IMG/VR virus record: IMGVR_UViG_3300033076_000316
Coordinates: 1-63,264 of that record
Direction: 5' to 3' (one strand)
Source: a virus
Lineage: Duplodnaviria > Caudoviricetes
Length of the DNA stretch: 63,264 nucleotides
The position numbers and the translations under genes were made by a program. The notes below the pieces were generated by a model. It was not told where the DNA came from, did no database searches, and saw only the letters and a program-made list of their open reading frames with translations. Positions 4,039 to 28,754 of this stretch are shown here, piece after piece; within the stretch, counting starts at the first letter, position 1; the number at the start of each line of letters is the position of its first letter.

Positions 4039-4055
4039 TATGTACTTAATACTAT

Positions 4056-12060: not shown

Positions 12061-12604
12061 TCACTGATTCTAGTACTGGCAGGTCTGCCATGTCTTGCAA
12101 ACCTATGATAGGAACGTTGTAGTTTCCCTTGCCGTATGGAGCCAGGTATCGAATGTCTACGCAGTCTCGACCGTATGCCCATCCAACTGCACGGAATGCT
12201 GGTGCTTTGTAACCGTCAGCTGGTGAACGACGAGTCTTCTCTTCTGGCCCACCTACGATAAGGATGTAGATTTCATTAGGGTCGTCTACGCCTTCTTTAA
12301 ACCGTAGTGAGTACTTTGGATACCCAGGAATGTTCTTGGTAAATGAATACCGAATCTCGTAACCTGGAATGTCCAACTTGTTCTTAAAAGTGTTGACGTG
12401 TGGCTCAAAGTCCTCCATGCCCATCATGCGAGCAGCTGCCAACTCAGACGCTGCACAAATCATGTGCTGCCAGGTCTCCCAGATATCGCCTTCGCTATAG
12501 TTGCGGTTACGCTCTGGCTGTCCCATCATAGGTAGCTGTCGCTCAAATCCAACACGGGCGGCAATTGCTTCCTCCATAGGAGTAAGCTGGTATACCCATG
12601 CCAT
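12053..12604 (-). CDS. hypothetical protein (possibly degenerate PD-(D/E)xK nuclease fold)
   Basis: SELAAA...LDIPGYEIRY pattern; weak match. Confidence 0.4.
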   Translation of the reverse strand: MAWVYQLTPMEEAIAARVGFERQLPMMGQPERNRNYSEGDIWETWQHMICAASELAAARMMGMEDFEPHVNTFKNKLDIPGYEIRYSFTKNIPGYPKYSLRFKEGVDDPNEIYILIVGGPEEKTRRSPADGYKAPAFRAVGWAYGRDCVDIRYLAPYGKGNYNVPIIGLQDMADLPVLESVNG

Positions 12605-13164
12605 TAGAATGTCTCCAGCTCTTGAGCTAGGTGCATTGCAAAGTCAATAGTGCTGTGAAGGACCTCTAGTGAGGATTCATTATTGATGTGAGAAGTAAAG
12701 TGGTAGTCATCTAGGTCATGCTCTGAGATGTGGGAATTTACTGCCTCAAAACCCGTACGATTCACACGCCAAAGTGCTCCCTGTGCTTCTATAACAGCAT
12801 CTGCTTCGTTCTTAAACCGAACATCAGCAAACACTACCTTGTCGTACTTGGCAGCTTCCTTCATAGCAAGGTCAATCCAAACGTTCTCACCGAACATGTT
12901 GCGACCTACTTCTGTACCCATACGCTGTAGTAATCCACGAACATCGGGGCTATCTACCTTAAGGCTCTCCCAACCAAGACCGTCTACAGCCTGTGCGAGG
13001 GAGACTCCCTGCATATCTGCAATCTCAATTTTAGGGTCTAGGAGATATAGAGCCTTACGCATAGGGTCAGCAAAAGAAATTTTGGTAAACCCATAGTTTG
13101 AGACTAGGTAGTTTGCTACCGTATCCTTGCCGCTTCGAGCGTACCCGCTTAGTCCGATAATCAT
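12604..13164 (-). CDS. deoxynucleoside monophosphate kinase
   Basis: MIIGLSGYARSGKDT P-loop, SFADPMRK, LQRMGTE, DVRFKNE, HISE. Confidence 0.92.
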   Translation of the reverse strand: MIIGLSGYARSGKDTVANYLVSNYGFTKISFADPMRKALYLLDPKIEIADMQGVSLAQAVDGLGWESLKVDSPDVRGLLQRMGTEVGRNMFGENVWIDLAMKEAAKYDKVVFADVRFKNEADAVIEAQGALWRVNRTGFEAVNSHISEHDLDDYHFTSHINNESSLEVLHSTIDFAMHLAQELETF

Positions 13165-13184
13165 GTGTGCCCTCCTCTTATTTG

Positions 13185-13433
13185 TTATTTAACTTCAGCG
13201 TGGTACTTGTGTACGTAGTCAGTTAGGTGGTCCAAACGGAACCCTGACCATACCTGACCGTCTGATGTTACTACTACTGGTGCTGACTGAAACTTGTTTT
13301 CATCGATGATTGCTTGAACCTCTGGGCTATCTGAAATCATCTTTGCTTCAAATGGAACGTCCTTGCGAATGAGAAACTTCTTAGTCTGCTCGCACTGTAC
13401 GCAGTTTGGATTGCTGTAAATTGTAATGCTCAT
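13185..13433 (-). CDS. nrdH: NrdH-like glutaredoxin
   Basis: YSNPNCVQC, APVV, WSGFR. Confidence 0.92.
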   Translation of the reverse strand: MSITIYSNPNCVQCEQTKKFLIRKDVPFEAKMISDSPEVQAIIDENKFQSAPVVVTSDGQVWSGFRLDHLTDYVHKYHAEVK

Positions 13434-13504
13434 TTGTGATGTCCCCAGACGTCGTTTGCGAATAAAAGAACTACTACGATTAGTAGGACTACTAGTATAC
13501 CCAT
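13430..13504 (-). CDS. 24-aa single-TM micro-protein (MGILVVLLIVVVLLFANDVWGHHK)
   Basis: GGAGG RBS; ATGA overlap with nrdH. Confidence 0.55.
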   Translation of the reverse strand: MGILVVLLIVVVLLFANDVWGHHK

Positions 13505-13539
13505 GGGTGCTGCACCTCCCTATGTGCTAACAGTGATTA

Positions 13540-14232
13540 TTATGGAGCAACTCGCCCATTTTTAACAAACGCTGCGTAAGTGTGTGGCATCTTTTCTCCA
13601 AAATACTTCTCCATCTGGTCTGCAACCATGGCGATTTCTACCTGAGGGAATGATGGATAGGTGCCCTGTTCGAGTGAACGCAGGCTCAGGAAGTTCATTA
13701 GCGAACGAGCATTCATAGTTACGTACATTGAGCTATAGATGTTTAGCGGAAGCACCATACGAGCTACTTCACGAGCAATACCGTGGTCTAGCATCCACTG
13801 ATAACGCTCGTAGGCATCCTGTGCACCGCTGTTTAGGCAAGCACTAGTTGCAACGTGTTGCTCGGAAGTCCCAGGTTCAAAGGTATACGCACCAGGCTTT
13901 CCAACCTGAATCAACTTACGGTTTTCATCTGGCACATAGAAAACAGGGGCAAGTTCCTTATAGCGCCCTGACTCCTCGTTGTATGAGGCCATACGGTGGC
14001 GCTGGAACTCACGGAACACGAATAGTGGTGCCTCAATGTAGAAGGTAAAGGCATTGTGCTCGAATGGTGAGCCATGACGGTCACGCATTAGATAGTTGAT
14101 TAGGCCTTGGTCTTTGGTCAGGTCTTCTCCAGCACCAGTAGACACACGAGCGGCCATGGTCACAGCCTCGTCAGAGGCCATAGAGTTGATTAGCTCGACA
14201 CGCATGTCTGAGCGGAATGTAATATCAGGCAC
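13540..14232 (-). CDS. thyX: flavin-dependent thymidylate synthase
   Basis: HGSPFEH, RHRMASYNEESGRY, REVAR, NARSLMNFLSLR; likely GTG start at 14232. Confidence 0.97.
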   Translation of the reverse strand: MPDITFRSDMRVELINSMASDEAVTMAARVSTGAGEDLTKDQGLINYLMRDRHGSPFEHNAFTFYIEAPLFVFREFQRHRMASYNEESGRYKELAPVFYVPDENRKLIQVGKPGAYTFEPGTSEQHVATSACLNSGAQDAYERYQWMLDHGIAREVARMVLPLNIYSSMYVTMNARSLMNFLSLRSLEQGTYPSFPQVEIAMVADQMEKYFGEKMPHTYAAFVKNGRVAP

Positions 14233-14689
14233 TGAAGTACTCCTTACGCTGTGCACGAGAGTCATTAGAACGACGAGTAATCTCACGGCTAACTAGCTGT
14301 AGGTCACGCTCGTGATTGTTGAGTAGCATTTCTACCAACTTACGGTATGCGTACTTCTCTTCGTAGTCATTATCCAAATCGATGATGTCTTGATTGACAG
14401 AAATCTCTGCCTTGATGGCAGTTACACGCTCACCCTTTACCTGGGCTCCCATGCGACGGAACATCATCTTGTCTTCCAAAAGCTTCAGGCGCTTCTGAGC
14501 AGCACGCTCTTCAAGCTCTGCCATGACCTTCTGAGAGGCGATGTAGTCAGTCCAAGCGGTTAGGCGAGTAAATAGCTCACCCAGCTGCTCTGAGCTGATG
14601 TCGGTGATGTCCGCTGGAAGGACCACTTGCTCATCGCTTGGTTTAGAGAACGAGAGGCCCCATCCAGCAAATTTATCTATAGCAGTCAT
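14225..14689 (-). CDS. helical protein, possibly UvsY-like recombination mediator
   Basis: Coiled-coil character, size, and position in the recombination module. Confidence 0.4.
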   Translation of the reverse strand: MTAIDKFAGWGLSFSKPSDEQVVLPADITDISSEQLGELFTRLTAWTDYIASQKVMAELEERAAQKRLKLLEDKMMFRRMGAQVKGERVTAIKAEISVNQDIIDLDNDYEEKYAYRKLVEMLLNNHERDLQLVSREITRRSNDSRAQRKEYFSA

Positions 14690-15543
14690 TAGTCCTCCTT
14701 GTATGGGTCACACTGCTTGCAGGTTCCACCAGGATTGTTGTTACACTCTGGTGCTACGCCTGCTTCTACGGCATCTACAACAAGCTTAGCCCTATCGAAG
14801 ACGTGTCGCACAATCTCGAAGTCTCGCTTTACTGAGAACTCCTTGTAAGACTGGTCAGCCTTCAACTCGTAGATGAAAACAATCTCATTAACGTCGTTAC
14901 CCATACGCTGCATCAGCTCTAGGTACATCTGTCCCTGAAGGATGTGAGGACCGAAAGGCTTCTTTACCTTGCCCCATGCCTTCATGAAGTCTCCGTCAGC
15001 CTCCATCATCAACGATGGCGCTTCTGAGCGAATGGTTCCTGGGCCGATTGACTTAATCTCGATTAAAGTGTCGTCACCGATTCCCTTAATCCAACCGTCA
15101 GTGTGGCCCTTGATGCGAAGAGAGTCATCGACCATGGTTACTTCGTCGTAAATAAGCTTGTACCAAGGAGCCTGGCAGACTTCACACTCTTTTGGAGAGG
15201 TTCCGAAAGTGACTGAGTCACATACCTGACACTTGAACTTGCCGTGAATAACGCCCATCTCTTGGAACCAACGCTGCCACTTAGCGTGGATGTAGTGACC
15301 CTCGTCAAAGATGTTCTGTAGGCGGAGGTTAGGGTTAGTGGCAATCTTCTTGTGACCGCTTAGTAGGAAGTACGACCCACGACGACAGAAGTCATTCTTA
15401 ATAATTTCTGAAGGGTGAATTACCAGGGTGCTGCGGTCACCTGGAGCTTTCGTAAGTAGGTGGCGGTCGATGTCGCCTAGTAGACGTGTGGGCTTAGACT
15501 TTGCGTCTAGAAACTTCCACAGGTCTGTTTTCTGTGCTGCCAT
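14689..15543 (-). CDS. Cas4-like PD-(D/E)xK exonuclease
   Basis: HPSE...C, GH.IH, GHTDG...IEIKS, QGQMY, terminal C...CKQC. Confidence 0.85.
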   Translation of the reverse strand: MAAQKTDLWKFLDAKSKPTRLLGDIDRHLLTKAPGDRSTLVIHPSEIIKNDFCRRGSYFLLSGHKKIATNPNLRLQNIFDEGHYIHAKWQRWFQEMGVIHGKFKCQVCDSVTFGTSPKECEVCQAPWYKLIYDEVTMVDDSLRIKGHTDGWIKGIGDDTLIEIKSIGPGTIRSEAPSLMMEADGDFMKAWGKVKKPFGPHILQGQMYLELMQRMGNDVNEIVFIYELKADQSYKEFSVKRDFEIVRHVFDRAKLVVDAVEAGVAPECNNNPGGTCKQCDPYKED

Positions 15544-15874
15544 TGTTTTCCCTCTTCTTGTTTTCTAACTGAAAGATGTACTCTTTCAAAGTCATAGTCT
15601 TACGATACTGTCTTTGCCACTTTCTGACAAGAGCGTTTCTTTCTCGGTGACTCATTCCGCCCCAGATGCCGTGCTGCTCGTCCGTACGAACAGCTTCCCA
15701 GAGACAGTCAAGTCTAACAGGACACGGAGGAACATCGTTCACTCCAAAGCAATAAGTCTTAGCCTCATTAGCAATGACTTTGTACATTTCTTTATCCCTA
15801 GGAGGGAAGAAAAGAGTTGCGTCTGGGTCAACTCCATCGCAAACCGCTTCTTGGTACCAAGCATCAAATTTCAT
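15494..15874 (-). CDS. whiB: WhiB-family Fe-S transcription regulator
   Basis: AVC...FFP...C...CPVRLDCL...HGIWGGMSHRER. Confidence 0.93.
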   Translation of the reverse strand: MKFDAWYQEAVCDGVDPDATLFFPPRDKEMYKVIANEAKTYCFGVNDVPPCPVRLDCLWEAVRTDEQHGIWGGMSHRERNALVRKWQRQYRKTMTLKEYIFQLENKKRENNGSTENRPVEVSRRKV

Positions 15875-16181
15875 TAAGTTTGTTCCACTGTTCAAGGAAG
15901 TCGGTCTCCAAAAGAATGACGTAGTCTTCGCCATTCAGGTGGATGCCGAATACTGGCAATCGACCATCCATGATTGCTTCATTGGTAATCTTTTCCAATT
16001 CAGCAGCTGAGATAGTCTTGGTCTTTTTCCCTGTCCATTTATGTTCGATGAGTAACTGGCTGTTACGTACATCGCCTTTGCGAGACCAGAAGGCCCCAGA
16101 AGCTGCCGTGGTTTGCCCTCCAATGGCTTTTGCGAGACGTTTCTCGTGCTTCTGAGACTGCTTCTGACCTTCACTCTTCAC
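15864..16181 (-). CDS. Hjc-like PD-(D/E)xK endonuclease/resolvase
   Basis: HEKRLAK...SGA...KGDV...LIEHK. Confidence 0.7.
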   Translation of the reverse strand: MKSEGQKQSQKHEKRLAKAIGGQTTAASGAFWSRKGDVRNSQLLIEHKWTGKKTKTISAAELEKITNEAIMDGRLPVFGIHLNGEDYVILLETDFLEQWNKLNEI

Positions 16182-16390
16182 TAGATAGTGGCCTGTTCGA
16201 TTACAATCTTGGCCACGTTATAAGCAAACTTTTCTTGCTGAGTCCATGCCTTTCGAGCCTCTACGTCCAATGCTCGTAGAATCTCGACACGAAGCTCTTC
16301 CGCGCCTTCACGGCGAAGCTCCATGTTCATTGACTCTACGTAGCGCTCGTAGGCTTCGTGGTCAATTGACAGTTCATTCATCTTACTCAT
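16181..16390 (-). CDS. hypothetical protein
   Basis: ORF track; GGAGGGC RBS. Confidence 0.7.
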   Translation of the reverse strand: MSKMNELSIDHEAYERYVESMNMELRREGAEELRVEILRALDVEARKAWTQQEKFAYNVAKIVIEQATI

Positions 16391-17432
16391 CTTGCCCTCC
16401 TGTAAATGAATCTGGTGTGTTAAGAACTTTATCGCGAAGCTCTGACATTAAGTCTACCTCTTCACGGATAGAGTTTACAAGAGCCTCTTGGCCCTGCCAC
16501 TTACGCTCACCGTAATAAATCCAGCCACCCTTGCGGTCCACAATCTGTTTGACGATTGCCATAGCAGCGATTTCCTTTGAGACGTCAAAGTCGCCAGCCT
16601 CGTAGATGCTGTATGGTGCGAAGTAGAAATCGATGTAAGCAACGCGCTGTGGTGGAGCGGTCTTGTTCTTTAGAACACGAATCTTGATACGCTGACCTAC
16701 ACGAGTCTTGTTAACTCCTGTGCCACCTTCAATCCACTCGTCACGACGAACCTCTGAGCGAGTGAAGAACGCATAGTTCTTACCCTCACCACCAGGAGTG
16801 GTGCGTGGGTCTCCGTGCATCACACCAATCTTCATACGGTACTGGTTGATTACAATACCTAGGATTGGGCGTTCTTCTTCTACTAGAGAGCGCTTCATTG
16901 CTGCTCCAGCCTTACGGAAGAACTTGTTAGTAATAAGAGCGCCACGACCAACGGTCATTTCGTCCATGGCCTTCTCATCTTCAGGACCAGGTACTAGGGC
17001 AGGAAGTGAATCAATAACAATAGCGTCAACAGATTTAGACTCTGCAAAAGCCAAAACTGCATCATAAGCTTCCTCCATAATGTTGGTCTCAATAACGATG
17101 ACACGGCTGGTGTCAACTCCGCACATTGCAGCGTACTCAGGAACCCACTGCTCAGCAGCTACCCATACAGTAGTGTGCTCTGGGTCTCGCGCTTGGTTAG
17201 CGGCAATAGTCTTTAGCGCGATTGCCGTCTTGCCGTGCGAAGCCTCTCCAATAAGCTCATTCCATTGATTGCTCGGAAAGCCGCCACCAAGGACATAATC
17301 AAAAGTAGTAGAACCAGTAGTAATACGCTTAATAAGGTCAGAACGAACATCTTCTCCAATTACTACTACGTTGTCACCCAGCTTCTTGTTAATCTGGGCC
17401 ATAATCTTGCGTGCTTCAGCGTTAATTGACAT
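16383..17432 (-). CDS. recA: RecA-like recombinase
   Basis: TTGS...GGG, GEASHGKT Walker A, IVIDS, INQ.R.KIGVM.GDP.TTPGG, KNKTAPP. Confidence 0.97.
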   Translation of the reverse strand: MSINAEARKIMAQINKKLGDNVVVIGEDVRSDLIKRITTGSTTFDYVLGGGFPSNQWNELIGEASHGKTAIALKTIAANQARDPEHTTVWVAAEQWVPEYAAMCGVDTSRVIVIETNIMEEAYDAVLAFAESKSVDAIVIDSLPALVPGPEDEKAMDEMTVGRGALITNKFFRKAGAAMKRSLVEEERPILGIVINQYRMKIGVMHGDPRTTPGGEGKNYAFFTRSEVRRDEWIEGGTGVNKTRVGQRIKIRVLKNKTAPPQRVAYIDFYFAPYSIYEAGDFDVSKEIAAMAIVKQIVDRKGGWIYYGERKWQGQEALVNSIREEVDLMSELRDKVLNTPDSFTGGQDE

Positions 17433-17568
17433 TCTTTAAGTCCTGGATTCCTTCTGCGATTTCTTCTAAGTATTCGGCTTCGGCGTCATCGCCAAAGTCT
17501 CGTAGGTCGTTTGCTAGGCCGATGACAAAGTTAGTAGCGTCATTAATGCCGTCTTCGTATGCGCTCAT
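17422..17568 (-). CDS. 48-aa acidic micro-protein
   Basis: Hand translation MSAYEDGINDATNFVIGLANDLRDFGDDAEAEYLEEIAEGIQDLKNVN; coupled at both ends. Confidence 0.65.
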   Translation of the reverse strand: MSAYEDGINDATNFVIGLANDLRDFGDDAEAEYLEEIAEGIQDLKNVN

Positions 17569-17954
17569 TAGCCGTCAATCCTTCCAATGATTCCCTGTGG
17601 ATTCCAGTTGCTTGTTGGATTGTTTCCAGCAGCCGCTTTAGCGGAACCTTCGACGTGTGCGCCTGTTAGGTTTCCGTATCGTGAGCCCGATTGCGAGATA
17701 GGATACCCGCAGTCATAGCAACGCGGTGCCGCATTTTGGATGGCCATATAATTAACCGACCCGCACTCAGGACACGTAGCAGTCTGCTTAGCTGATTGCG
17801 CACGCTCCGCCTGTGGGGCTTGAAAGGAAGGCATCGGCTGCATAGGCTGCTGTGATGGTGGCATAGGAGGCATGTCCATTGGACGACCTACTGGTGCCTG
17901 TTGCTGTGCTGGGGTGCCCGCTAGGCGAGCTGCCCACCAATCTGCGTTACTCAT
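17568..17954 (-). CDS. Pro/Gln-rich zinc-ribbon protein
   Basis: CPECGS...CYDCGY. Confidence 0.75.
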   Translation of the reverse strand: MSNADWWAARLAGTPAQQQAPVGRPMDMPPMPPSQQPMQPMPSFQAPQAERAQSAKQTATCPECGSVNYMAIQNAAPRCYDCGYPISQSGSRYGNLTGAHVEGSAKAAAGNNPTSNWNPQGIIGRIDG

Positions 17955-18370
17955 TTGTGCCTCTTTGGAATGTCGAGTAGACCCATGTCTACGATTTGAG
18001 ATACTGAACCTAGGATTGCTGAGAGTGCAACCTGCTCCATCATGCGACGGCTTTCCTGCCAGATTTCGTCTGGAAGTTCCTTGAGCTCACCAGTCAGATT
18101 ACTTCGCTGGTACTCAACTGCACCTTCTGCAAGTGTATGTGCGTGTGCGTAAAGTAGTGGAATCAGGTAACCAATTCGCTCTGTGCGCTTGTCACTTTCT
18201 TGCTCTTCACGTTCAGCTACCTCGTCACTTAGAGCACTGCATCCTAGGAGCTCTGTAAGAGCATGCCCATTCTGAATTTGCGAGTCTAGAATAAACCCAC
18301 GTAGGCGACTAGTAATGTCGCCAATGCTGAGTCCATGCTTATGCTTATGCTTTTTCTTTTTAGCGAACAT
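17951..18370 (-). CDS. hypothetical protein
   Basis: ORF track; coupled to neighbours. Confidence 0.75.
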   Translation of the reverse strand: MFAKKKKHKHKHGLSIGDITSRLRGFILDSQIQNGHALTELLGCSALSDEVAEREEQESDKRTERIGYLIPLLYAHAHTLAEGAVEYQRSNLTGELKELPDEIWQESRRMMEQVALSAILGSVSQIVDMGLLDIPKRHK

Positions 18371-20373
18371 TACTTTGCCTCACCCCACTTATCAACGATA
18401 TATACCTCAGCTTTTAGTGGAACCTTGATAGAACTCAAGTTGATTCCTTCCATTGCTGACTTAATTGCTTCTGCAGTTTCTTCTGCTCGGTCTTCTGGAG
18501 TAATTGTTACCAATTCATCGTGAACCGTTAGTACTACATTAATGGATGGCTCATTGATAAAGCAAGAGTGTGCACGAACAAGTGCGAGCTTCATGATGTC
18601 AGCGGCTGAACCCTGAATCATGGTGTTGAAAGCCTGACGTTCTGCACGAGAGATTAGCCCCATCTCCTTGCTGTTGAGGTCAGGAATGTATCGACGACGA
18701 CCAAAGATAGTTTCGATAAAAGGGATTGGCCCTGACTGCTTGGCTAGGCGAACAACCTGAGACTTGTATTTAGCAATCGAAGAGAATTCCTTCTCAAAAC
18801 GAGTCAATAGGTCCTTGGCTTCCTTTACAGAACATCCGATAGACGCTGCAATCTTGTCAGGTCCTACACCGTATGAGATAGCGAGAACGAGAACCTTACC
18901 AGCCTTACGGTCTACACCCATGGTGTCACCGATGGTGGTGTAGATGTCTCCTCCAGTCAAGTAGTTGTTTACTAGAACAGGGTCCTGAGAGAACGACGCA
19001 ATGACTCGTGGCTCAATCTGAGAGTAGTCAGCTACAACAAGCTTGTACCCTGGAGGAGCAACGAACAGGTTACGAACCAACTTGCCATAATCTCCCGATG
19101 ATGGGATGTTCTGCAAGTTAGGCTCGCTAGATGAGAAACGACCAGTCTCGGCACCGTGTGCCTTGAAGTTAGTATGTACGCGACCATTGATAAGAAGCGA
19201 GTCCTTCTTAGTAATAGTCTCCTTACCATTGGTAACACGCTTGACCATACCTCCCTTGTAAGGAGTTACATAGGTGGTCATCAGCTTGTTCAAGTCCTGA
19301 TATTCCAGTAGAGCGTCTACTAGTTCGTCTTTACCTCGGTAGTACTCAAGGGCTTCGGCGGAACATGAGTAGTGTGACTCGTTGAGCTCCTCACGGTTAC
19401 GCTGAGCCTCCTGACCCTTAGTGGTCAAGGCAGCCTTGAACTTAGGATTAGGAGTGATACGTGGCTTCTTACCATCTTCTTGAGGAGTAAACAGCAATTT
19501 CTGCTTCGCAGGAACAGAATTAATTGCGAAAGCCTTGCCTGCCAACTTGTAGCATTTTGCTTCGGCTTCTTGTTTACCCTTTTCAATCTCGATAGCCAGT
19601 GTATCGAGAGCTTCCTGGTCAATGTAAGCACCAGTCAATTCCATGTCGCACAGGGCTCCTAGTACGTCCATTTCGAGACGCCAGACCTTCTGCAGGTTCC
19701 CAACAATCTTTGGCTTCAAGGCCTTGTAGAGGTCCCAGGTGAGCGCTGAGTCAATGCCTGAGTAGTTAGCGACCTCTGAGAATGCATGAAGCGCAACGTT
19801 TTCTCCGACTCCCTTTTCCATGTCAACGCCAAGTTCTCGCTTTACACAGTCTTTAAGTCCTAGGTTGAACTTATTCTGGTTGTTGATGATAAAAGAGGCC
19901 ATCAAAGTATCGAAGTATGGCTTAGCTGGTACACGGCCTTTGTAGTACTTCGCTACAGACTTGAGGTCGAACTTTGCGTTGTGAGCGACCTTGAGCGCAG
20001 GACCAAACATGATTGGTTCAATGGCGTCAAACACCTGGCGTGGAGTTAGCTGGGACGGGGCTTCCCCGAACTTGGCCGTCCACTTACGCTGGTCTTTAGA
20101 GTAGTGAGACTCAAGGATAGGCTTGCCGTTCTCAAGACGGCGAAGTCCCTCAGTCATTAGTGGCTTATCCCAGCCAGTGAACTCGCCGTTAGGGTGACCC
20201 ATAGGGATAACGTCTGTGCGACCCTCAGTCGCAAATGAAATCCAGCAAACGTCATTGATTACTGGGTATAGGCGGTTTTCGCCAATAGTCTCTACGTCCC
20301 ACGCAAAAGCATCGACGTTCTTATACGCAGCTACAAACTCGGCTAGCTGCTGTGCCGTTGTAATGATATTCAT
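18370..20373 (-). CDS. polA: family A DNA polymerase with 3'-5' exonuclease
   Basis: DVET, HNAKFD, TGRFSSSEPNLQNIP, ADYSQIE, YG, AFNTMIQGSAADI, VHDE; start at ATG 20373 after GAGGGCA. Confidence 0.97.
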   Translation of the reverse strand: MNIITTAQQLAEFVAAYKNVDAFAWDVETIGENRLYPVINDVCWISFATEGRTDVIPMGHPNGEFTGWDKPLMTEGLRRLENGKPILESHYSKDQRKWTAKFGEAPSQLTPRQVFDAIEPIMFGPALKVAHNAKFDLKSVAKYYKGRVPAKPYFDTLMASFIINNQNKFNLGLKDCVKRELGVDMEKGVGENVALHAFSEVANYSGIDSALTWDLYKALKPKIVGNLQKVWRLEMDVLGALCDMELTGAYIDQEALDTLAIEIEKGKQEAEAKCYKLAGKAFAINSVPAKQKLLFTPQEDGKKPRITPNPKFKAALTTKGQEAQRNREELNESHYSCSAEALEYYRGKDELVDALLEYQDLNKLMTTYVTPYKGGMVKRVTNGKETITKKDSLLINGRVHTNFKAHGAETGRFSSSEPNLQNIPSSGDYGKLVRNLFVAPPGYKLVVADYSQIEPRVIASFSQDPVLVNNYLTGGDIYTTIGDTMGVDRKAGKVLVLAISYGVGPDKIAASIGCSVKEAKDLLTRFEKEFSSIAKYKSQVVRLAKQSGPIPFIETIFGRRRYIPDLNSKEMGLISRAERQAFNTMIQGSAADIMKLALVRAHSCFINEPSINVVLTVHDELVTITPEDRAEETAEAIKSAMEGINLSSIKVPLKAEVYIVDKWGEAK

Positions 20374-20394
20374 GATTGCCCTCAAGAAAGTATA

Positions 20395-20448
20395 AGTGCA
20401 GGGAGCCAGAGGAAACAGAAGGGAAAAAAGACTCTGGCTCCCTGCACT
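20395..20448 (-). promoter_or_regulatory. 17-bp perfect stem-loop with 20-nt pyrimidine-rich loop between SSB and polA
   Basis: AGTGCAGGGAGCCAGAG (20395-20411) pairs with CTCTGGCTCCCTGCACT (20432-20448). Confidence 0.75.
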
Positions 20449-20459
20449 GGTGGGAGATA

Positions 20460-21116: not shown

Positions 21117-21168
21117 GGTATTTCTTCTTTCGGTAATGAGGCTTTCGCTCTCGATTGGTAATGAGGTC

Positions 21169-21654
21169 TTATGACTCTCGGTTAGCTGTTGCTGCCTTCC
21201 ATCGTAGCACAAGTGCTTCTGTTAGGTCATCCAGCTGACTCCATTCTACACGAGCTGAACCCAAAAGTCCACGCCGTGCAAACTCTTCTATGGCAATTTC
21301 AATAAGACGTCGTGTATAAACACGGTTTCCGTTTACTTTAGTGCCGTTCAGAGTTTTAGAACGAAGTCGGTAGGGAGCAATTGGAATGTATCCCTTCTTC
21401 TCCCATAGACGAATGGTGACAATCTTCTTGTCCAAAGCGTGCGCTAGGGCACCAATGGTAAAGACTTCTGTCTCCACTCCCTGAAGAGTTTTAATAATTG
21501 GGTGGTTATCCCAACCGTTAGACTCTCCAAGAGCTTGCTTACGTCGCTTGTCTGCTACTGGAGTAGACTCACGACGTGGTTGCTTTGAGCCAGGTACACG
21601 GTCGAGGCCCTCAAAAGCTTTAAGGACTTCTTCTTCACTACGCATACCAGGCAT
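21169..21654 (-). CDS. MerR-like HTH DNA-binding protein
   Basis: FTIGALAHALDKKIVTIRLWEKKGYIP...RVYT. Confidence 0.8.
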   Translation of the reverse strand: MPGMRSEEEVLKAFEGLDRVPGSKQPRRESTPVADKRRKQALGESNGWDNHPIIKTLQGVETEVFTIGALAHALDKKIVTIRLWEKKGYIPIAPYRLRSKTLNGTKVNGNRVYTRRLIEIAIEEFARRGLLGSARVEWSQLDDLTEALVLRWKAATANRES

Positions 21655-21656
21655 GA

Positions 21657-22100
21657 TTACTTCTTCGGAATACGGAGAGCCCAAGTAGTGGTTACTGGGA
21701 ACATCTCATCAAGTTCTTCTTCGCTAATCTTGCCTTCGTAAAAAGCAGCCATTAGCGCGTCTTCGTTTAGCACAAGCTTAGTCTCGTATAGTTCATCCGT
21801 CAACTGGTGCTGGGCGATGATTGTCTCTGCGACTGCTTCATCAACCTTACGACTTGAACGACGCTGCTTCTCTAGACGTACGACACCTTCAATGGGCTCG
21901 TCGAAATCGATTAGTAGGTTTCCGTTGCTGTCCTCTTCGCCTTCAAGGTCAAGCTTTTCAAACAAAGCCACACGCAATTCATCTGCACGTGCTTTAAGAA
22001 TGGTTTCAGTTGACTTTAGCTTGATGTATTCGCGAAGCTTTGCCTCAAAACTATCTGGGTTAAGAATTCGTGAAGTCTCTTCTGGGATAATGTTAGCCAT
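21657..22100 (-). CDS. hypothetical protein (coiled-coil)
   Basis: ORF track. Confidence 0.7.
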   Translation of the reverse strand: MANIIPEETSRILNPDSFEAKLREYIKLKSTETILKARADELRVALFEKLDLEGEEDSNGNLLIDFDEPIEGVVRLEKQRRSSRKVDEAVAETIIAQHQLTDELYETKLVLNEDALMAAFYEGKISEEELDEMFPVTTTWALRIPKK

Positions 22101-22228
22101 TATTTCGCACTCACTAGGCGACGCTTAGTTGCGTCAAACATCTTTGGGTGCTTCTTAGCAGCCTTACCGTTTTGACGGTCAGTGCCCTTACTTGCTGGAG
22201 CTGGAGCTCCACCCTTACCTTTAGCCAT
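22100..22228 (-). CDS. 42-aa basic micro-protein
   Basis: MAKGKGGAPAPASKGTDRQNGKAAKKHPKMFDATKRRLVSAK; AAGGGCA RBS; TAATG coupling. Confidence 0.65.
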   Translation of the reverse strand: MAKGKGGAPAPASKGTDRQNGKAAKKHPKMFDATKRRLVSAK

Positions 22229-22237
22229 GATGCCCTT

Positions 22238-23806
22238 CTAAATTAGCTTGTTGTTTATAAATTGTATCAGGCTGCCAACTGTGAGGTCAACTCCGCCTTG
22301 AGAGTTAATGTTTGAGCCGTCTAGGATTGCTCCTGCGACGTTGCTCTTTTGCTTAAGCATATCGTACTGACGTTGCTCAATAGAATCCTTGACGAGGATG
22401 TCTTGGATTGTTATGGACGACCAAGTAGATGAGGTCCTGTTAATGCGACCGTTACGTTGCACTGCAAGACCTGAGCTCCATGGCTGGTCGTAATTGAGCA
22501 AGAGGTTAGCCTGAGGCAAATCCACACCATAGCCACCAGCATCACTACTGACAAGAACACGAGTGTTCGGGTTAGTTTGGAAATTAACTTTGGCTTCTTC
22601 TTTTTGTCTTGCATTCATTTCTCCTGTGTAACCAACGGCATCATAACCTTTGGCTTTAAGTCTGCTTACTATTTCTCCAACAGAGTCTAGATAGCTTGAG
22701 AATACTACAGCTTTGTATGCTCCGTCAATATCGAGGTGCTCCGATAGGTAAGAGATGGCTGCGTCTAGTTTAGGAGTTTTTGCAATATCTTCAATGAGCT
22801 CGCCTAGGCTGTGGATGTACGCACTGCCCTTTCCTGTGTGGTTGTCGAAGTTAGCGTAGCTAGTCTTTACAACATCAGGGCTGGAGCAGAGCATTCGCAT
22901 GGCAGATATTCGAGACATTACCTCACCACGCATTTGGTTAGCTGGGTCATTTGCATCGTAGGACTGGCCATAGTGAGCGGCAAGGCTAAAGTTACTTCCG
23001 AAAGATTCGCTGGCCTCCACTAAAAGTGCGTGTAGGTCCTTAGCAATATGGTTGTAAAGCTTCTGGCCTTTGCTGTCTAATGGAACAATAATCGGTTCTC
23101 TATAGATTGCGTCAGGAAGATATGGCTTAACATCCTCATCCTTCTGTGACTTGCGGACCGTGTGGTCCATAAGTATTTTGTGAAGGGTAGGAAGATTACG
23201 GTAACGCTGAACTCCACCGAAGTGATTACGAACGATAAAAGTTTTATCGAAAAGGTCGAAACGTCCTAGAACCTTTGAGTCTACGAACTGCATGATTGAG
23301 AAAATCTCTTCAGGTCTTCCGTTTTCAATTGGAGTTCCTGTGAGTGCAAATCTGATAGGAATGTTCTTAGCGAGGTCTTTGACTCGCTTAGCTCTTTTAG
23401 CTTTAAATCCTTTGATGGCTGTGGCCTCGTCACAGACGATAGCTGCGTAGGTACCATTCTTTAAAATGTCCCAGTCGTTGACTATTTGTTCGTAGTTCAT
23501 GATTACGTACTGGGCTTTGTCTGCCTCGTGGTACTGGGCAAGTCTTTGCTTTGAGGTTCCGTCAATGACTACAGCAGTTGAGTCACTGAACTTCTCTATT
23601 TCTTTTTTCCACTGGTACTTCAAGCTGGCAAGACAAAGAACTATTACTAAGTCGTTTATCTCGCCAGCTTCTCGAAGTTCTTCGACAGCAGCAATAGTCA
23701 TAGGTGTTTTGCCTAGACCCATTTCGTACGCTACAAGAATGTGCTTGGTCTCCACCATCTTTTCGACAGCTTCAACTTGGTACGGTTTTAGTGTTCCTTT
23801 AAACAT
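22238..23806 (-). CDS. SNF2-family helicase
   Basis: LKPYQ, EMGLGKT, CDEA, LTGTPIEN, GGYGVDL, QRNGRINR. Confidence 0.93.
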   Translation of the reverse strand: MFKGTLKPYQVEAVEKMVETKHILVAYEMGLGKTPMTIAAVEELREAGEINDLVIVLCLASLKYQWKKEIEKFSDSTAVVIDGTSKQRLAQYHEADKAQYVIMNYEQIVNDWDILKNGTYAAIVCDEATAIKGFKAKRAKRVKDLAKNIPIRFALTGTPIENGRPEEIFSIMQFVDSKVLGRFDLFDKTFIVRNHFGGVQRYRNLPTLHKILMDHTVRKSQKDEDVKPYLPDAIYREPIIVPLDSKGQKLYNHIAKDLHALLVEASESFGSNFSLAAHYGQSYDANDPANQMRGEVMSRISAMRMLCSSPDVVKTSYANFDNHTGKGSAYIHSLGELIEDIAKTPKLDAAISYLSEHLDIDGAYKAVVFSSYLDSVGEIVSRLKAKGYDAVGYTGEMNARQKEEAKVNFQTNPNTRVLVSSDAGGYGVDLPQANLLLNYDQPWSSGLAVQRNGRINRTSSTWSSITIQDILVKDSIEQRQYDMLKQKSNVAGAILDGSNINSQGGVDLTVGSLIQFINNKLI

Positions 23807-24776
23807 ACGCCATTTCACCGAGGATAGAAGGTTTTGCGTTTTGAATGCCCCACGCAATCTCCTCATCGGTCATATCGCCTGGGTCTTTCTTACCACTATC
23901 ACCATAGTTGAAAAAGAACAAATTTAAACCGTATTTACGTGCAGTAATACGCAGTTCATCTGAAGCCTTCTTGCCAGCAGAATCTAGCTTTGGGTTGTCG
24001 AGGGCGCTGATGACTCGCTCCGAGTAGCGGATGAGCTTGAGCTGTTCCTCACTAATAGATGAACCGCAAATAGCCACAGCCCCATGAATACCAGCGGACC
24101 TAAGCCGAACACAATCAAGAGGAGACTCAACGATGACAACTACGTCTTCTTTCTGGTTCTCGATGCCGAACAATGTCTTAGACTTCTGAAGTCCTGCAGG
24201 GCGGTTGAAGAAGGTGCGGTGAAGCGTACCCTTCTCCTGCCAGCCCATGAGACGGTTAAAGTGAGGTTCCCTTAGTGGAAGAATCCACGTAGCCTTCTTT
24301 GCGTCCCAGAGCAATCCGTACTCAGCTGCTGCTTCTGCAGTAATGTTACGGCTGGCAAGTGCGTCTGATGGTGGCTCCTCGAATAGTGCAAGACGGGCCT
24401 CAGACATCTCTAGTGGCTTAGGTGCTGGCTCTAGACGATTAGGGAGGTTCTTAATCATCTCAGCTAGCTTCTCAATTGGAATAGCCGAAACAGAAGCTAA
24501 CCAGTTCTGAGCTGCGGGATAGTCGTAGCTGTAGTCCTTGCCCCAACCCTGAACGTAGAACTCGTTGATGTCACAGACTAGCTGTGCAACATTGCCCTTG
24601 TAGTTACAGGAGAAACAAATGTGCTGGCCTGAGTCAAGGTTAATCCACCATGAAGGAGAGTTATCCCGCTTACCTGTGCGACGCTCATGCATAGGGCAAA
24701 GTGCGTTAGCTTCTGAGCCATGCTCAGTAGAGTCAATACCTAGTGCTGCAAGCACAGCAATTACGTCAAGAATCAT
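23799..24776 (-). CDS. DNA primase (CHC2 zinc finger + TOPRIM)
   Basis: CPMH...CFSC, VESPLD, LDN...D, KDPGD. Confidence 0.9.
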   Translation of the reverse strand: MILDVIAVLAALGIDSTEHGSEANALCPMHERRTGKRDNSPSWWINLDSGQHICFSCNYKGNVAQLVCDINEFYVQGWGKDYSYDYPAAQNWLASVSAIPIEKLAEMIKNLPNRLEPAPKPLEMSEARLALFEEPPSDALASRNITAEAAAEYGLLWDAKKATWILPLREPHFNRLMGWQEKGTLHRTFFNRPAGLQKSKTLFGIENQKEDVVVIVESPLDCVRLRSAGIHGAVAICGSSISEEQLKLIRYSERVISALDNPKLDSAGKKASDELRITARKYGLNLFFFNYGDSGKKDPGDMTDEEIAWGIQNAKPSILGEMAYV

Positions 24777-26029
24777 AGCTTGTTACTCGCATATGGTGTG
24801 CAGAACTTGCAGGACTTTGCCTTGGTCTCATCGTGGAAGCACCCAGTCTCCCACATCCAAGTAATCGAAGTCTCTGATGGTGGGCAGTTACGAGCCTGAA
24901 CAACACGAAGCATACGAATCTCTTCGTCTTCTTCTACGGCATCCAGACCGAGGATTACATCTGAGTCCTGGAAGAATGAGGATGAGTAACCGATTGAGTC
25001 AGCAGAAACCTTTCCACCCTTCATCTTCCAAAGAAGCGTCTGGGTCGAGATAACCACTGGCTTGTTCATACGCTGCGCCATGCGCTTCAGGGCACGAGTG
25101 ATGTTGGTCAGCGCCTGTGGAGTGTTGGCTTCGCCCGTGACTTCGTCGAGCATCAAGTACACACCGTCAACAAAGATAATGTCTGGGTTAAGCTGTTCGG
25201 CCTTTGCCATCAATGCGCTAACAGTCAATCCGTTAACAGCGTCAATCAAGTGGAAGGGCTTAGCGGTCTTGAGCGAGTCAAGCTTAGCTAGCAAGCGGTC
25301 CTCTTCAGCAGTCTGTAGCTTACCGCGTCGGAAACGAGCGTTAGAAATGTGTGCAGACATGGAGAGGAAACGCTGAGTCTGCTCGTGGTTGTTCATCTCG
25401 AAAGACTGGAACATAGGTACCAAACCAGAGTCGTGAACGTTGTTAGCCATCTTCAAGATAATCTGCGACTTACCCGTCTTAGGCGGAGCAATCACGGTAA
25501 TCAGCTGACCGCCCTGTAGGCCAGCAGTTGCTTCGTCAATCTTCTCAAATCCAGTAGGAACACCAAGCATCTTGTTGTTCTGTACGTTCTCATACTCTTC
25601 CCAGAACTTATCTGGGTCAGTAGTGAGGTCTAGGTGAGTTGTGCCAATGATGCCCTGCTCGTTGACCATTGCGACTGTCTTAGTCATCTCGGCCAGGGCG
25701 GACTCGTGGTCGTTGTGGGTTACCTTCTCGATAACCTGCTCGACACCGTTGCGGGTAATCGTGCGACGACGGAACTCGACCATCTTGTCAATTAGATACT
25801 CAATGGTGTCTTCTACACGAAGAACTTTAAAATTAGGAAAGTTATCTACGACTGCTACGGCTGACGGAGTCTCGCGGTAAGTGCTGTAGTGTTCACGAAC
25901 GAACTTCCATACACGACGTAGGTCGTCGTCTACGAACCAGTCGTCTTTAATCCCGCGTTCAATTACAGGAATGATGTTTCGGTCACCAATGACCTTGCTG
26001 ACTAAACGATACTCGTTATCGTGTGCCAT
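24773..26029 (-). CDS. dnaB: DnaB-like replicative helicase
   Basis: GVPTGF, APPKTGKS, SFEM, FVDG, DSD, QAR. Confidence 0.92.
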   Translation of the reverse strand: MAHDNEYRLVSKVIGDRNIIPVIERGIKDDWFVDDDLRRVWKFVREHYSTYRETPSAVAVVDNFPNFKVLRVEDTIEYLIDKMVEFRRRTITRNGVEQVIEKVTHNDHESALAEMTKTVAMVNEQGIIGTTHLDLTTDPDKFWEEYENVQNNKMLGVPTGFEKIDEATAGLQGGQLITVIAPPKTGKSQIILKMANNVHDSGLVPMFQSFEMNNHEQTQRFLSMSAHISNARFRRGKLQTAEEDRLLAKLDSLKTAKPFHLIDAVNGLTVSALMAKAEQLNPDIIFVDGVYLMLDEVTGEANTPQALTNITRALKRMAQRMNKPVVISTQTLLWKMKGGKVSADSIGYSSSFFQDSDVILGLDAVEEDEEIRMLRVVQARNCPPSETSITWMWETGCFHDETKAKSCKFCTPYASNKL

Positions 26030-26047
26030 GTTTGCCCTCTATCTGTT

Positions 26048-26464
26048 TTATAGGTTGTCTAGTTCAATGCCCCATGAACCGTAACGAGCAACCCGTTCTC
26101 GTAAATCTACCACACCTTTTAAGTTAGTACGGTAGGGCAGTTCTCCAATGAAGTCTTCCATGTCGTTGTACAACTCAGCGTAATTAAACGGGTTGCCTCC
26201 ACGACGGTCCAGCTTATCCATGAACTTATCTAGGTGGTCCTGCGTCCAAAGCTCTGATTGAAAGGCAGCTAGTTCTACTGAAAGGCCATACTTATCTGCG
26301 ATGTTCCATAGATGAGACAGTGCTAGATGATTAAGGCTTAGAACCTTTCGCTCGGTCACTGAACGAAGTAACTTGCGTTCCTCTTCGATTTCTGATTTGG
26401 CTACGACGTCTATTACCACGATGATGCGAGGCGAAGTCTCGTTCGAGATGTCTCCGTTAATCAT
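26048..26464 (-). CDS. hypothetical protein
   Basis: ORF track. Confidence 0.7.
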   Translation of the reverse strand: MINGDISNETSPRIIVVIDVVAKSEIEEERKLLRSVTERKVLSLNHLALSHLWNIADKYGLSVELAAFQSELWTQDHLDKFMDKLDRRGGNPFNYAELYNDMEDFIGELPYRTNLKGVVDLRERVARYGSWGIELDNL

Positions 26465-26780
26465 CTGTCAAACCGTCAATAACCTCGACCTTTCCGTGCT
26501 TCAATACAAACTCACGGAATAGCTTTGGGTCTGCCATGGCGGCAAACGCTTCCTCATCTTCGACATCTTCTGGAATGTGAATTGAGTAGTGTCCCTCATT
26601 TTCTGCCATGTACTTCTTCACATACTTAGCGTGCTGGCAACGAGCAGAGCGCTGAAAAGCAGGGCAAGTACAGCGAACCTTCTTGCTGTTCTCAGCGTCA
26701 ATCTCTACTTCAAATACTCCGTCAGGTGACAAGAACATTTGAACTGTGCGCCACTCGATATCCATCTTTAAATCCTTCAT
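26457..26780 (-). CDS. SWIM zinc-finger protein
   Basis: CTCPAF...CQH. Confidence 0.75.
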   Translation of the reverse strand: MKDLKMDIEWRTVQMFLSPDGVFEVEIDAENSKKVRCTCPAFQRSARCQHAKYVKKYMAENEGHYSIHIPEDVEDEEAFAAMADPKLFREFVLKHGKVEVIDGLTDD

Positions 26781-27499
26781 TGCTGACGTAGGTCCTCTCC
26801 AATAATACGTACTCGCTTGAATGCTTCATGTGCAAAACTACCCATTGCAGGCCCGTACTTCTTCTCCCAGTCCTCACGACGAACGTTTGTAGTGATGATT
26901 GTTGGTAGAGCCTTATCGTATCGTGCCCTCAGGATTTCGTCAAATGAGGTGTTGTCGTAGTCTGAGCCGTACTCCTTGCCTAGGTCATCTAGGACTAGTA
27001 GGCGTACGTTTAGCCAGTCGTACTTAGAGCGACCGTGGTAGCCCTCCATCTCCTGAAACATGTTCGCCTTGGACTCTGGGTCTGCATCAAACATAGCCTT
27101 CTTACGAGATAGGAACTCTGGGTAGGTCATGTAGTAAACCGCACGAGTATCCATGCCGTAGTCCTTCGATGAGATACCTAGAATGTCTCGAGCCTGTGCC
27201 TCGTCCGTAGGCAGGCGGCGAACAAACTCCATGAGAGTTGTTACAGCGTGAGTGGTCTTTCCAAGGCCTGGGCCACCATCAAATAGGAGCCCTAGTCCAG
27301 TAGTGCCGATTCCGCCAACCTGCTTGATGTTATCTCCAGCAAGTACGTTGTCCATCCAGCGTTCAATAACTGCTGGAAAACTCCCTACCTTCTTTGCGAT
27401 ATCTGAAGGTTCCATTCCCAAGAAGCGGCGAGGAATGTTTGACCCACGAAGTAGCCAATGCTTCTTCATTGGGTCTAGTTCGTTAATGTCGTAAGACAT
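26777..27499 (-). CDS. DnaC/IstB-like helicase loader ATPase
   Basis: GGPGLGKT, LLVLDDLGKE, RYD...PTIITTN. Confidence 0.9.
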   Translation of the reverse strand: MSYDINELDPMKKHWLLRGSNIPRRFLGMEPSDIAKKVGSFPAVIERWMDNVLAGDNIKQVGGIGTTGLGLLFDGGPGLGKTTHAVTTLMEFVRRLPTDEAQARDILGISSKDYGMDTRAVYYMTYPEFLSRKKAMFDADPESKANMFQEMEGYHGRSKYDWLNVRLLVLDDLGKEYGSDYDNTSFDEILRARYDKALPTIITTNVRREDWEKKYGPAMGSFAHEAFKRVRIIGEDLRQQ

Positions 27500-27517
27500 T
27501 GTGCCCTCTTTCTGTTT

Positions 27518-28468
27518 TTACTTTAGTGAAGCTTCGTACTTTGCTAACTCTAGTTTCCCTGACATTGAGTTATCAAATTCTGTGCCATCAGAAGCATAAA
27601 CGTAGTACACGGAGTCCTCGTTGTCAACTTCAGTTGTTCCATTGGCGATTTGCTGCATGTGATTGCTTAGCCAGTTCAAATAAACCTTGTGGCCATTCTC
27701 TGGCTTCTTAGCGATAGACGCAACTGCTGATGAGTCCTGGAACATGGTTCGCATAACTTCCAGTTCCACTGTCGCATTGGTCTTATAGCGATTACGGAAA
27801 GTATTCAGAATCACCTTTAGATTCACGCCGTTGATGGGACCAGTGTTGGCTTTTACGTGCTGGTACATCATCATGCCAAACTCAGTGGCAACATCCTGAG
27901 TAGTCCACTCAGCCTCTGGTCGCATAAGACGATTAACTGGCCTAGCCTTAGCAGGCTTCTTAGGCTTTGCCTTCTCAACCATCTCTGACTCAAACAAACC
28001 AACACCAGGGATGTCATCATCATCCGACCAACGATTAACCACAATCTCCTCCTTCGGGGCGTCAGCCCCTAAGTAAGACGAAGTCTTACTTACTAATGAC
28101 TTAACAATAATAGTCTTATAGCTATTACTACTACCTTGACCAGCTGTGGATGTTTCTGGCTGGAAACATAGAGAAACAGCTTCTTCTTCCTTTGTTTCTG
28201 GCTGGAAACACGGGGAAATCAACCGATAACGGTTCTTGTAAAACTTGTTAAAGTTGCGACGAGTACGCTCAGTTTCTACAAGACCAGCCTCTTCAAGGGC
28301 AGTCATGTCACGCCAAACCGTAGTACGGCTGGTATTGGTTAGCTGCTCTAGCTCTTCAGAAGTAAGGTTGACGTCACCCCAACGGTCAACATGACGGTAC
28401 ATCACCGCCAGTAAATAAAACTCCCTAGGCGTCAGACCTTTGTCCAACGCCTCTTCTGGTACTTGCAT
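27518..28468 (-). CDS. replication initiator protein (N-terminal wHTH)
   Basis: HTH TSEELEQLTNTSRTTVWRDMTALEEAGLV; upstream of the DnaC-like loader; contains internal DNA repeats. Confidence 0.75.
   Translation of the reverse strand: MQVPEEALDKGLTPREFYLLAVMYRHVDRWGDVNLTSEELEQLTNTSRTTVWRDMTALEEAGLVETERTRRNFNKFYKNRYRLISPCFQPETKEEEAVSLCFQPETSTAGQGSSNSYKTIIVKSLVSKTSSYLGADAPKEEIVVNRWSDDDDIPGVGLFESEMVEKAKPKKPAKARPVNRLMRPEAEWTTQDVATEFGMMMYQHVKANTGPINGVNLKVILNTFRNRYKTNATVELEVMRTMFQDSSAVASIAKKPENGHKVYLNWLSNHMQQIANGTTEVDNEDSVYYVYASDGTEFDNSMSGKLELAKYEASLK
28056..28210. promoter_or_regulatory. putative replication origin (iterons, AT-rich tract, hairpins)
   Basis: TGTTTCTGGCTGGAAACA at 28151-28168 and 28193-28210; AT-rich ~28086-28135; inverted repeats at 28071-28091 and 28056-28069. 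Confidence 0.65.
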
Positions 28469-28475
28469 TTGCCCT

Positions 28476-28742
28476 CTATCGTCGCGAAACTACCTGAGTA
28501 ACACTAGCAGGTCGAGTGACGATTTGTGTAGCCACAACCGAAATAAATCCCGCGGCGGGTCCAGCGATGACTAGTGTGAATCCTGTAATTCCCAGTAACC
28601 ATGCGGCGTAGAAGGTTAGAGGCAACGTTAAAATTGCTCTAAGAATTTTTGGGCTAAAGAAGCTTTCTGTAGCCATGTTGATAAATTCGATAGAAAAGCT
28701 AACGGCAATTCCAGAAATAATGATTCCAATTAAAGTGTCCAT
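28476..28742 (-). CDS. small multi-TM membrane protein (holin candidate)
   Basis: 88 aa with about 3 hydrophobic segments at the end of the tail module. Confidence 0.5.
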   Translation of the reverse strand: MDTLIGIIISGIAVSFSIEFINMATESFFSPKILRAILTLPLTFYAAWLLGITGFTLVIAGPAAGFISVVATQIVTRPASVTQVVSRR

Positions 28743-28754
28743 AAGGACATCTTA

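Follow-up and report, generated by a model that had tools for sequence, protein, structure and literature searches.

In Cluster K mycobacteriophages, an asymmetric repeat of 13 nt, the start-associated sequence (SAS), precedes non-structural genes at a distance of 3-7 nt from the start; in it, AGGAG is joined to conserved bases unable to pair with ribosomal RNA (rRNA) (Pope et al., 2011; PMC3203893). Imperfect inverted repeats of 17 bp (ESAS; PMC3203893) accompany about half of the sites, and no function had been assigned to SAS in 2011 or in a 2025 survey (PMC12699233). In this study, a shorter sequence, GAGGGCA, was analyzed in a 63,264-bp stretch of phage DNA (IMG/VR record IMGVR_UViG_3300033076_000316; the whole stretch is referred to as the window), where it stands directly before the start codons of several replication genes. 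Judged by the features compared below, GAGGGCA is analogous to the Cluster K SAS, outside that family: it is placed like a Shine-Dalgarno (SD) sequence, enriched at that position, specific to one gene block and conserved in relatives, and its 3' extension does not pair with the anti-SD sequence.

Phage T4 provides two further points of comparison. RegB cuts early mRNAs within the SD sequence (GGAG), whose 3' extension (GG*AGRAYARAA) sets the specificity; middle and late mRNAs escape, and cleavage inactivates the message (PMC3014915). RegA, whose gene belongs to the replication cluster, acts as a repressor at the initiation regions of about 30 early mRNAs, and the RegA protein of RB69 protects the stretch between SD and AUG (PMC3014915). 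GAGGGCA shares with the RegB targets an SD core with a 3' extension at the initiation regions of early genes; the extension is G-C in the window, whereas that of RegB is A-rich. With the RegA targets it shares the location in the initiation regions of many early or replication mRNAs, which are served by a single factor in T4. RegA sites, as characterized in that review, are A+U-rich, without a clear consensus and inclusive of the AUG, in contrast to the sharp, G/C-containing motif found here, which excludes the AUG. Literature searches combining SD sequences, early genes and conserved motifs retrieved nothing closer than this review (PMC3014915), and those for 'GAGGGCA' gave primer-like matches only.

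GAGGGCA occurs 11 times in the window, every time on the minus strand, where all credible genes lie. The raw count is unremarkable (mean of 6.83 for both strands together in 100 shuffles, 12 of which reached 11). Six copies end 3, 2, 3, 3, 2, and 1 nt before the ATG codons at 13164, 16390, 20373, 26029, 27499, and 28468, respectively, as the initial annotation had stated, and PHROGs agreed with its names for five of the genes. Specifically, the motif was found at 13168..13174, as GAGGAGGGCA, before the dNMP kinase gene (12604-13164); at 20377..20383 before the gene for DNA polymerase I (18370-20373); at 26033..26039 before that of the DnaB-like helicase (24773-26029); at 27502..27508 before that of the DnaC-like helicase loader (26777-27499); and at 28470..28476 before that of the O-like replication initiator (27518-28468), where its first G is overlapped by the TAG stop codon of an upstream open reading frame (ORF) of 88 aa. 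The sixth copy (16393..16399) is embedded in the UvsX/RecA-like gene (16383-17432), at its 3' end, and precedes a 69-aa ORF starting at 16390, for which no PHROGs family was found. The ORF tool also gives a TTG at 20385, which falls within or upstream of the motif and was not adopted as the start. The remaining five copies (16114, 26924, 42125, 43099, and 57095) are intragenic and away from starts.

Variants of the motif were seen at four further starts, three of which had been noted before. AAGGGCA (22231..22237) ends 2 nt before the ATG at 22228 of a 42-aa ORF, the head of a translationally coupled group (22228-20460); GAGGGAA (15548..15554) ends 4 nt before the ATG at 15543 of the Cas4-like exonuclease gene (14689-15543); and GAGGCA (17958..17963) ends 3 nt before the ATG at 17954 of a 128-aa ORF with zinc-ribbon hints. 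The additional site, again GAGGCA (18376..18381), ends 5 nt before the ATG at 18370 of an ORF of 139 aa overlapping the stop codon of polA. All of these sites are on the minus strand, and all motif and variant starts fall within one block at 11.5-28.7 kb.

Enrichment was calculated on a heuristic gene list, for which the longest ORFs were picked greedily and ten starts were altered by hand (91 ORFs, 90 with usable upstream sequence). GAGGGCA was the commonest 7-mer within 16 nt upstream of the 90 starts (6 seen, 0.16 expected). The tetramer GAGG was present in the last 14 nt before 16 starts and continued as GCA in 6 of them; the corresponding figure for all other GAGG occurrences of the coding strand was 5 of 219 (Fisher p 1.4e-5). 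Motif-bearing starts made up 6/27 of the starts in the block (11476-28742) and 0/63 of those outside (p 4.8e-4), so that the specificity for the replication module suggested by the initial annotation holds in the window. Within the block, GGGCA was found at 6 of the 8 starts with an upstream gap of at least 5 nt and at 1 of the 19 overlapping or coupled starts (p 6e-4), while none of the 32 independent starts outside the block carried it (p 7e-6 versus the 6/8). The motif thus marks those cistrons of the block that need their own ribosome recruitment. The sheath, tube, and baseplate genes have the ordinary AAGGAG, AAGGA, or GGAGG sites expected from the earlier inspection.

The spacer between GAGG and ATG measures 4-6 nt at the six sites, which is SD-like. 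Anti-SD pairing was computed with a textbook 16S tail in place of that of the host (the 16S sequence of the metagenome-assembled genome (MAG) discussed below comprises the 5' part only); with this tail, GAGG forms a 4-bp duplex, and the six real sites range from -6.3 to -12.8 kcal/mol, depending on the upstream bases. GAGGGCA and GAGGGCU scored equally (-6.3 kcal/mol over 4 bp), in agreement with the previous statement that the GCA part lies outside anti-SD pairing. Complementarity and start distance are therefore those of an ordinary SD sequence, but rRNA pairing does not account for all conserved bases: the third G and the C are conserved without adding any pairing. These two are the informative bases. 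In the gene families of the block, C is the next base after [AG]AGGG+ in 63% of cases (n=136), compared to 16% after GGAG and AGGAG cores (n=176 and n=239).

Neither a common hairpin nor any other consistent structure was found across the motif sites. The sole inverted repeat adjoining a motif copy is a perfect 17-bp hairpin with a 20-nt loop (20395..20448, minus strand). It occupies part of the 86-nt gap that precedes polA, at 11 nt upstream of the motif of this gene, and the relatives have retained a C-rich arm at this position. An SD-sequestering stem specific to polA was considered and rejected, as the C-rich tract of the relatives is the 3' arm of this separate hairpin, which may be a terminator, an attenuator, or a processing site dividing two transcription units of the replication block.

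Relatives were collected by searching viral contigs with the DnaB and tail-sheath proteins (80 loci each, 160 loci in total); a search with the 542-aa protein encoded at 7860-9488 gave no matches. The DnaB proteins of the respective loci are 70-82% identical to that of the window, and the loci form 63 clusters at a nucleotide identity of at least 90%. Motif counts refer to dereplicated upstream 30-mers; tblastn matches in which the query began after residue 8 were dropped, as were families represented by fewer than 5 orthologues, and the WhiB orthologues were left out because their start calls were unreliable. GGGCA was present within 16 nt of the start in 30/64 cases for dnaB, 17/33 for polA, 8/25 for the initiator, 11/56 for the DnaC-like loader, 7/65 for the primase, 6/41 for the family of the window ORF g22100, and 4/23 for the exonuclease. 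It was absent before the sheath (0/45), tube (0/49), and baseplate wedge (0/49) genes, and zero or near zero in all other families. The replication-versus-structural contrast proposed from the window alone is thus also seen among its relatives. A count independent of gene calls yielded 117 sites in 1039 kb of dnaB loci and 43 sites in 985 kb of sheath loci. The former include 35 sites at dnaB, 13 at the loader, 12 at the initiator, and 10 at polA; the latter lie mostly at short or lysine-rich ORFs, and 0/43 at a recognized structural gene.

The start codon following GGGCA in the relatives is ATG in 81/94 cases. Before dnaB, the sequence between the upstream stop codon and the motif is variable, GAGGGCA(A) is retained in many lineages, and the distance from motif to ATG ranges from none to about six bases. 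A shared cis-signal acting at translation starts would be expected to leave such a pattern of conservation at one set of gene families. In four complete relatives (91-96 kb, with terminal repeats) and in a 42%-complete fragment (40.5 kb), each record holds 2-6 exact copies of the motif that are separated from an ATG by 0-6 nt. One of the complete relatives (G005, 95.8 kb) encodes a tyrosine integrase (L162:819-1946; Pfam 78.8 bits) in the orientation opposite to that of dnaB, and both the integrase start and a 65-aa ORF just upstream of it carry GAGGGCA; other matches on the opposite strand of complete relatives are mostly chance short ORFs (8-55 aa). Because the integrase start carries the motif, its class is better termed 'early/non-structural' than strictly 'replication', and some members of the group may be temperate.

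The resemblance to SAS covers several features. Each element is a short asymmetric repeat with a single orientation, a few nucleotides before starts that are mostly ATG; both are confined to non-structural genes; both consist of an SD core plus conserved bases unpaired with 16S rRNA; the stop codon of the preceding gene is often contained in either element; and both are retained across subgroups at differing gene families, in actinophages (probable ones in the present case). There are also differences. The motif is GAGGGCA (core RAGGGC, 5-7 nt) here and the 13-nt GGGATAGGAGCCC in SAS, and six exact copies plus four variants in a 66% fragment compare to 11-19 SAS copies. Furthermore, the window derives from a contractile-tailed phage of an uncultured low-GC lineage, whereas the SAS phages are mycobacterial siphoviruses. 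The consensus GGGATAGGAGCCC matched the window 8 times at up to 3 mismatches (11.2 expected), never at a motif start; at 2 mismatches, one match was obtained, which is intragenic and on the non-coding strand. No 17-bp repeats of the ESAS type were found at the motif sites; only polA has an inverted repeat, the perfect hairpin described above.

GAGGGCA looks like a class-specific ribosome-binding site. The explanation that we tentatively put first, while granting it somewhat less than an even chance, is that it is a start-associated sequence made up of an SD core and a 3' extension recognized at the mRNA level by a trans-acting factor. GAGGGCA would then be the ribosome-binding site of the independently initiated cistrons in the replication/early block, with GAGG as the core pairing with the 16S tail. 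The G-C(-A) extension, unpaired with rRNA, would be under selection and would be recognized by a binding protein or by an endonuclease cutting between SD and AUG. We infer both the existence of this putative factor, which may be phage- or host-encoded, and its action. The outcome would be a common translational control (shut-off or tuning), distinct from that of the late structural genes. As the genes after each motif gene overlap its stop codon, about seven sites could govern most of the block through translational coupling.

Genome-specific variants of the extension are suggestive of a reader acting genome-wide. GGGCT was found at several genes in some relatives (four genes in L011; also L065 and L062) and GGGTA in others (three genes in L067; also L032), and further relatives have GGGAA or GGAGG throughout. 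Among 48 representative genomes, the dinucleotide after the G-run agreed between different genes of one genome in 97/196 pairs, compared to 60 under the null (0/5000 shuffles reached this value); after dereplication to 14 genomes, 34/86 pairs agreed versus 16 (0/5000), and 17 versus 6.6 when only non-CA pairs were considered (3/5000), although the label shuffles ignore relatedness. In phylogenetically independent contrasts on the DnaB tree, the co-variation of GGGC between genes was non-significant, with too few contrasts (dnaB versus polA, 2.9 in the same direction and 0.7 in the other; dnaB versus loader, 1.9 and 1.5).

Like this last result, a number of other observations weigh against a dedicated reader. 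The A after GGGC corresponds to the usual A-rich spacer. Many relatives have an ordinary GGAGG or AAGGA at the same genes, and 34/64 dnaB upstream sequences are without GGGCA; hence, the motif is replaceable rather than indispensable. The predicted accessibility of the SD region did not differ between motif genes and other genes (p 0.2), and the complementary sequence TGCCCTC was not found on the coding strand of the window.

Searches for the factor itself were likewise negative. Six-frame searches of the record, which is 66% complete (CheckV), gave no match to RegA (PF01818, at E<=1), RegB (PF10715), or CsrA (PF02599); as a third of the genome is missing, this is weak evidence. The sites also lack the consistent hairpin with a GGA loop that would mark CsrA/Rsm targets. 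Pfam analysis of ten small ORFs of the block returned nothing RNA-binding, the matches being limited to a SWIM zinc finger (22.1 bits) and faint indications of a zinc ribbon and of MerR. Two small proteins encoded between loader and DnaB (26048-26780) are conserved in 75-78 of the covered relatives. The model of the 138-aa protein (pLDDT 91) is an alpha/beta fold with weak HAD-like matches only (best E 2.5e-3, TM 0.52 or less), and the 107-aa protein, which has an invariant, SWIM-like CxC...CxH motif, gave a model (pLDDT 84) without any structural match (best E 0.78). Both were rejected as RegA-like candidates, as the modelled folds are unlike RegA. Similarly, the presence or absence of the variable small ORFs g28742, g22228, and g16390 did not track motif use (p 0.36, 0.52, and 0.88, respectively). 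The reader could be located in the missing third of the genome or in the host. The RegA-like protein named in the initial annotation thus found no support in the 66%-complete record. Its broader proposal, an operator for coordinated translational control, stands in part: the observation was confirmed and strengthened, the motif being real, block-specific, and conserved, while the regulatory interpretation, with no regulator found and a motif that can be replaced, is plausible but unproven.

Nearly as likely as a trans-acting reader, and likewise a tentative proposition, is a factor-free SD dialect, in which the stand-alone cistrons of the block merely share a modest 4-bp SD sequence (GAGG) and the late module uses another style. 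Selection for translation rate or for the local RNA context would maintain the flanking bases, or else these would be inherited with a module that is passed on as a unit. The motif is placed exactly as an SD sequence and contains GAGG, the free substitution by GGAGG or AAGGA in relatives is readily accommodated, and regulator, antisense RNA, and structure were all searched for in vain in the 66%-complete record. The late genes also have non-random flanks, and they share with some other genes a distinctive SD style (TAAGGA and AAGGAT at 6-7 starts versus about 0.3 expected, e.g., at 40284, 54059, 59696, 47608, and 10382; AAGGAT alone at 6 versus 0.31). In the relatives, the second position after AAGGA is a T in 51% of the starts outside the replication block versus 17% inside. 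This fits blocks that differ merely in SD style, as does the non-significance of the tree-based contrasts. What a dialect leaves unexplained is the C, which follows the purine run four times more often than it follows other SD cores and is retained while the rest of the spacer between stop codon and motif varies, although the extension provides no pairing energy. Moreover, the extension is common to different genes of one genome beyond shuffling, even after dereplication, and inheritance of single sites does not explain this.

A more specific, and rather improbable, version of the trans-acting reader concerns the cytidine itself. Mycobacterial RNase E prefers RR|CNU, cleaving immediately 5' to a cytidine that follows purines (PMC10641625). 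By analogy, the cytidine right after the SD purine run (GAGGG|CA here, AGGAG|CCC in the Cluster K SAS) might be a programmed cut site between SD and AUG, used by actinobacterial RNase E or a phage nuclease as a general actinophage device. The GGG|C of the motif, a lone cytidine after a purine run in an unstructured 5' region, agrees with the purine-purine|C half of this preference, and so does the SAS sequence. The U at +3 is absent from all six sites, the host is not a mycobacterium, and the looser RRC pattern fails to separate gene classes (7/8 versus 21/32). If such cleavage occurred, the host decay machinery would end early translation on schedule, following RegB-like logic without RegB, and the dialects GGGCA, GGGCT, and GGGTA would track the specificity of the reader.

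We regard as unlikely, slightly more so than a cut site, that the motif is an operator on DNA, that is, a short asymmetric site at gene starts that is bound by a phage repressor or transcription factor and silences or times early lytic genes in the manner of stoperators. The stoperators of Cluster A mycobacteriophages are 13-bp DNA sites for the immunity repressor, which act on transcription and are not tied to the SD position. Like GAGGGCA, they are asymmetric, orientation-dependent short sites in small intergenic gaps. The contrast between stoperators and SAS is discussed in the SAS paper (PMC3203893). The single orientation, the short intergenic gaps of non-structural genes, and the integrase start carrying GAGGGCA in at least one complete and possibly temperate relative would suit such an operator. 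On the other hand, the conserved core comprises only 5-7 bp and always includes the SD core, its spacing from the ATG varies within the limits usual for an SD sequence, and the replacements seen in relatives are other SD sequences, not other operators. In the window, neither a repressor nor an integrase was seen, apart from the weak hint of a MerR-type helix-turn-helix, and sigma-70-type promoter and terminator matches in 11000-30900 were not enriched (17 and 14 versus 21.6 and 16.0 expected). Finally, a small antisense RNA (sRNA) of phage or host, the other regulator raised in the initial annotation, whose UGCCCUC seed would mask the SD sequences of all motif mRNAs together, is very improbable: a shared 7-nt site without local structure at several ribosome-binding sites does resemble an sRNA regulon, but the window (lacking 34% of the genome) has no complementary sequence on its coding strand and gave empty Rfam and tRNA scans, and seven nucleotides are short for a seed without a chaperone. 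Actinobacteria are not known to encode Hfq or ProQ.

The window is a single linear viral record and does not represent the whole genome. PHROGs and Pfam annotation indicated a contractile-tailed phage, with tail sheath (40971-42482), tail tube (40309-40956), and baseplate genes (31914-35496) on the minus strand and a truncated head gene (62843-63247) cut by the window end; terminase and portal genes were not recognized among the annotated genes of this partial genome. The block of replication and nucleotide metabolism runs from 28468 to 11476 in the order O-like initiator, DnaC-like loader, two small conserved ORFs, DnaB, primase, helicase, small ORFs, PolA, small ORFs, UvsX/RecA-like recombinase, 69-aa ORF, Holliday-junction resolvase, WhiB, Cas4-like exonuclease, thymidylate synthase, thioredoxin, dNMP kinase, and RuvC-like resolvase. 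Short palindromes and inverted repeats cluster at 28070-28380 within the O-like initiator gene. In lambda, the replication origin is embedded inside the initiator gene, and the cluster is reminiscent of this arrangement.

An actinobacterial host is suggested by the WhiB gene of the block (Pfam 60.4 bits, cut-off 23.6); whiB serves as an actinophage marker in freshwater metagenomes (PMC10914622). The closest genomic relative of this WhiB (43% identical) is encoded by an Actinomycetota MAG (2.1 Mb) that was not shown to be the host; GAGGGCAN{1,3}ATG occurred 18 times in this MAG versus 5 in the reversed control, and 6 times versus 1 in the phage (63 kb). No close phage was found by DNA in INPHARED, and the best PolA matches, from Streptomyces phages, are about 37% identical. 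The lineage is an uncultured, low-GC, WhiB-encoding, and abundant group of myoviruses, which probably infect Actinobacteria.

Several further features of the window were recorded. A run of modification-type genes (45641-56312) includes a radical SAM protein, a 2OG-Fe(II) oxygenase, a DNA methyltransferase, and two glycosyltransferases, with tail-fibre genes interleaved, and may reflect DNA or virion modification. The direct-repeat search returned solely collagen-like and proline-rich coding repeats; these are the collagen-like repeats with a 9-nt period in both tail-fibre genes (48788-48998 and 57691-59072) and the 33-nt proline/glutamine-rich repeats of a 259-aa ORF (54422-54850). GC-rich hairpins followed by T runs lie in larger intergenic gaps at 62262-62380, 62762-62842, 43746-43813, and 3981-4055 (predicted -24 to -54 kcal/mol) and are likely intrinsic terminators delimiting late operons. 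The sole long plus-strand ORF (161-913, 250 aa, GTG start) is located in a gene-poor stretch (1-1330).

Class-specific translation-start signals are rare and poorly understood, and the Cluster K SAS is the only close precedent. GAGGGCA is a second, unrelated consensus that follows the logic of SAS, and it suggests a phenomenon wider than one mycobacteriophage cluster. The natural variation among relatives, comprising the CA, CT, and TA dialects as well as loss of the motif, offers a handle for finding the reader. If a dedicated factor exists, it would act as a new kind of switch, at the post-transcriptional level, between early and late gene expression of the phage and would provide a compact, portable translation-tuning element for Actinobacteria. 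If there is none, the case documents how strongly the flanks of SD sequences can be shaped module by module.

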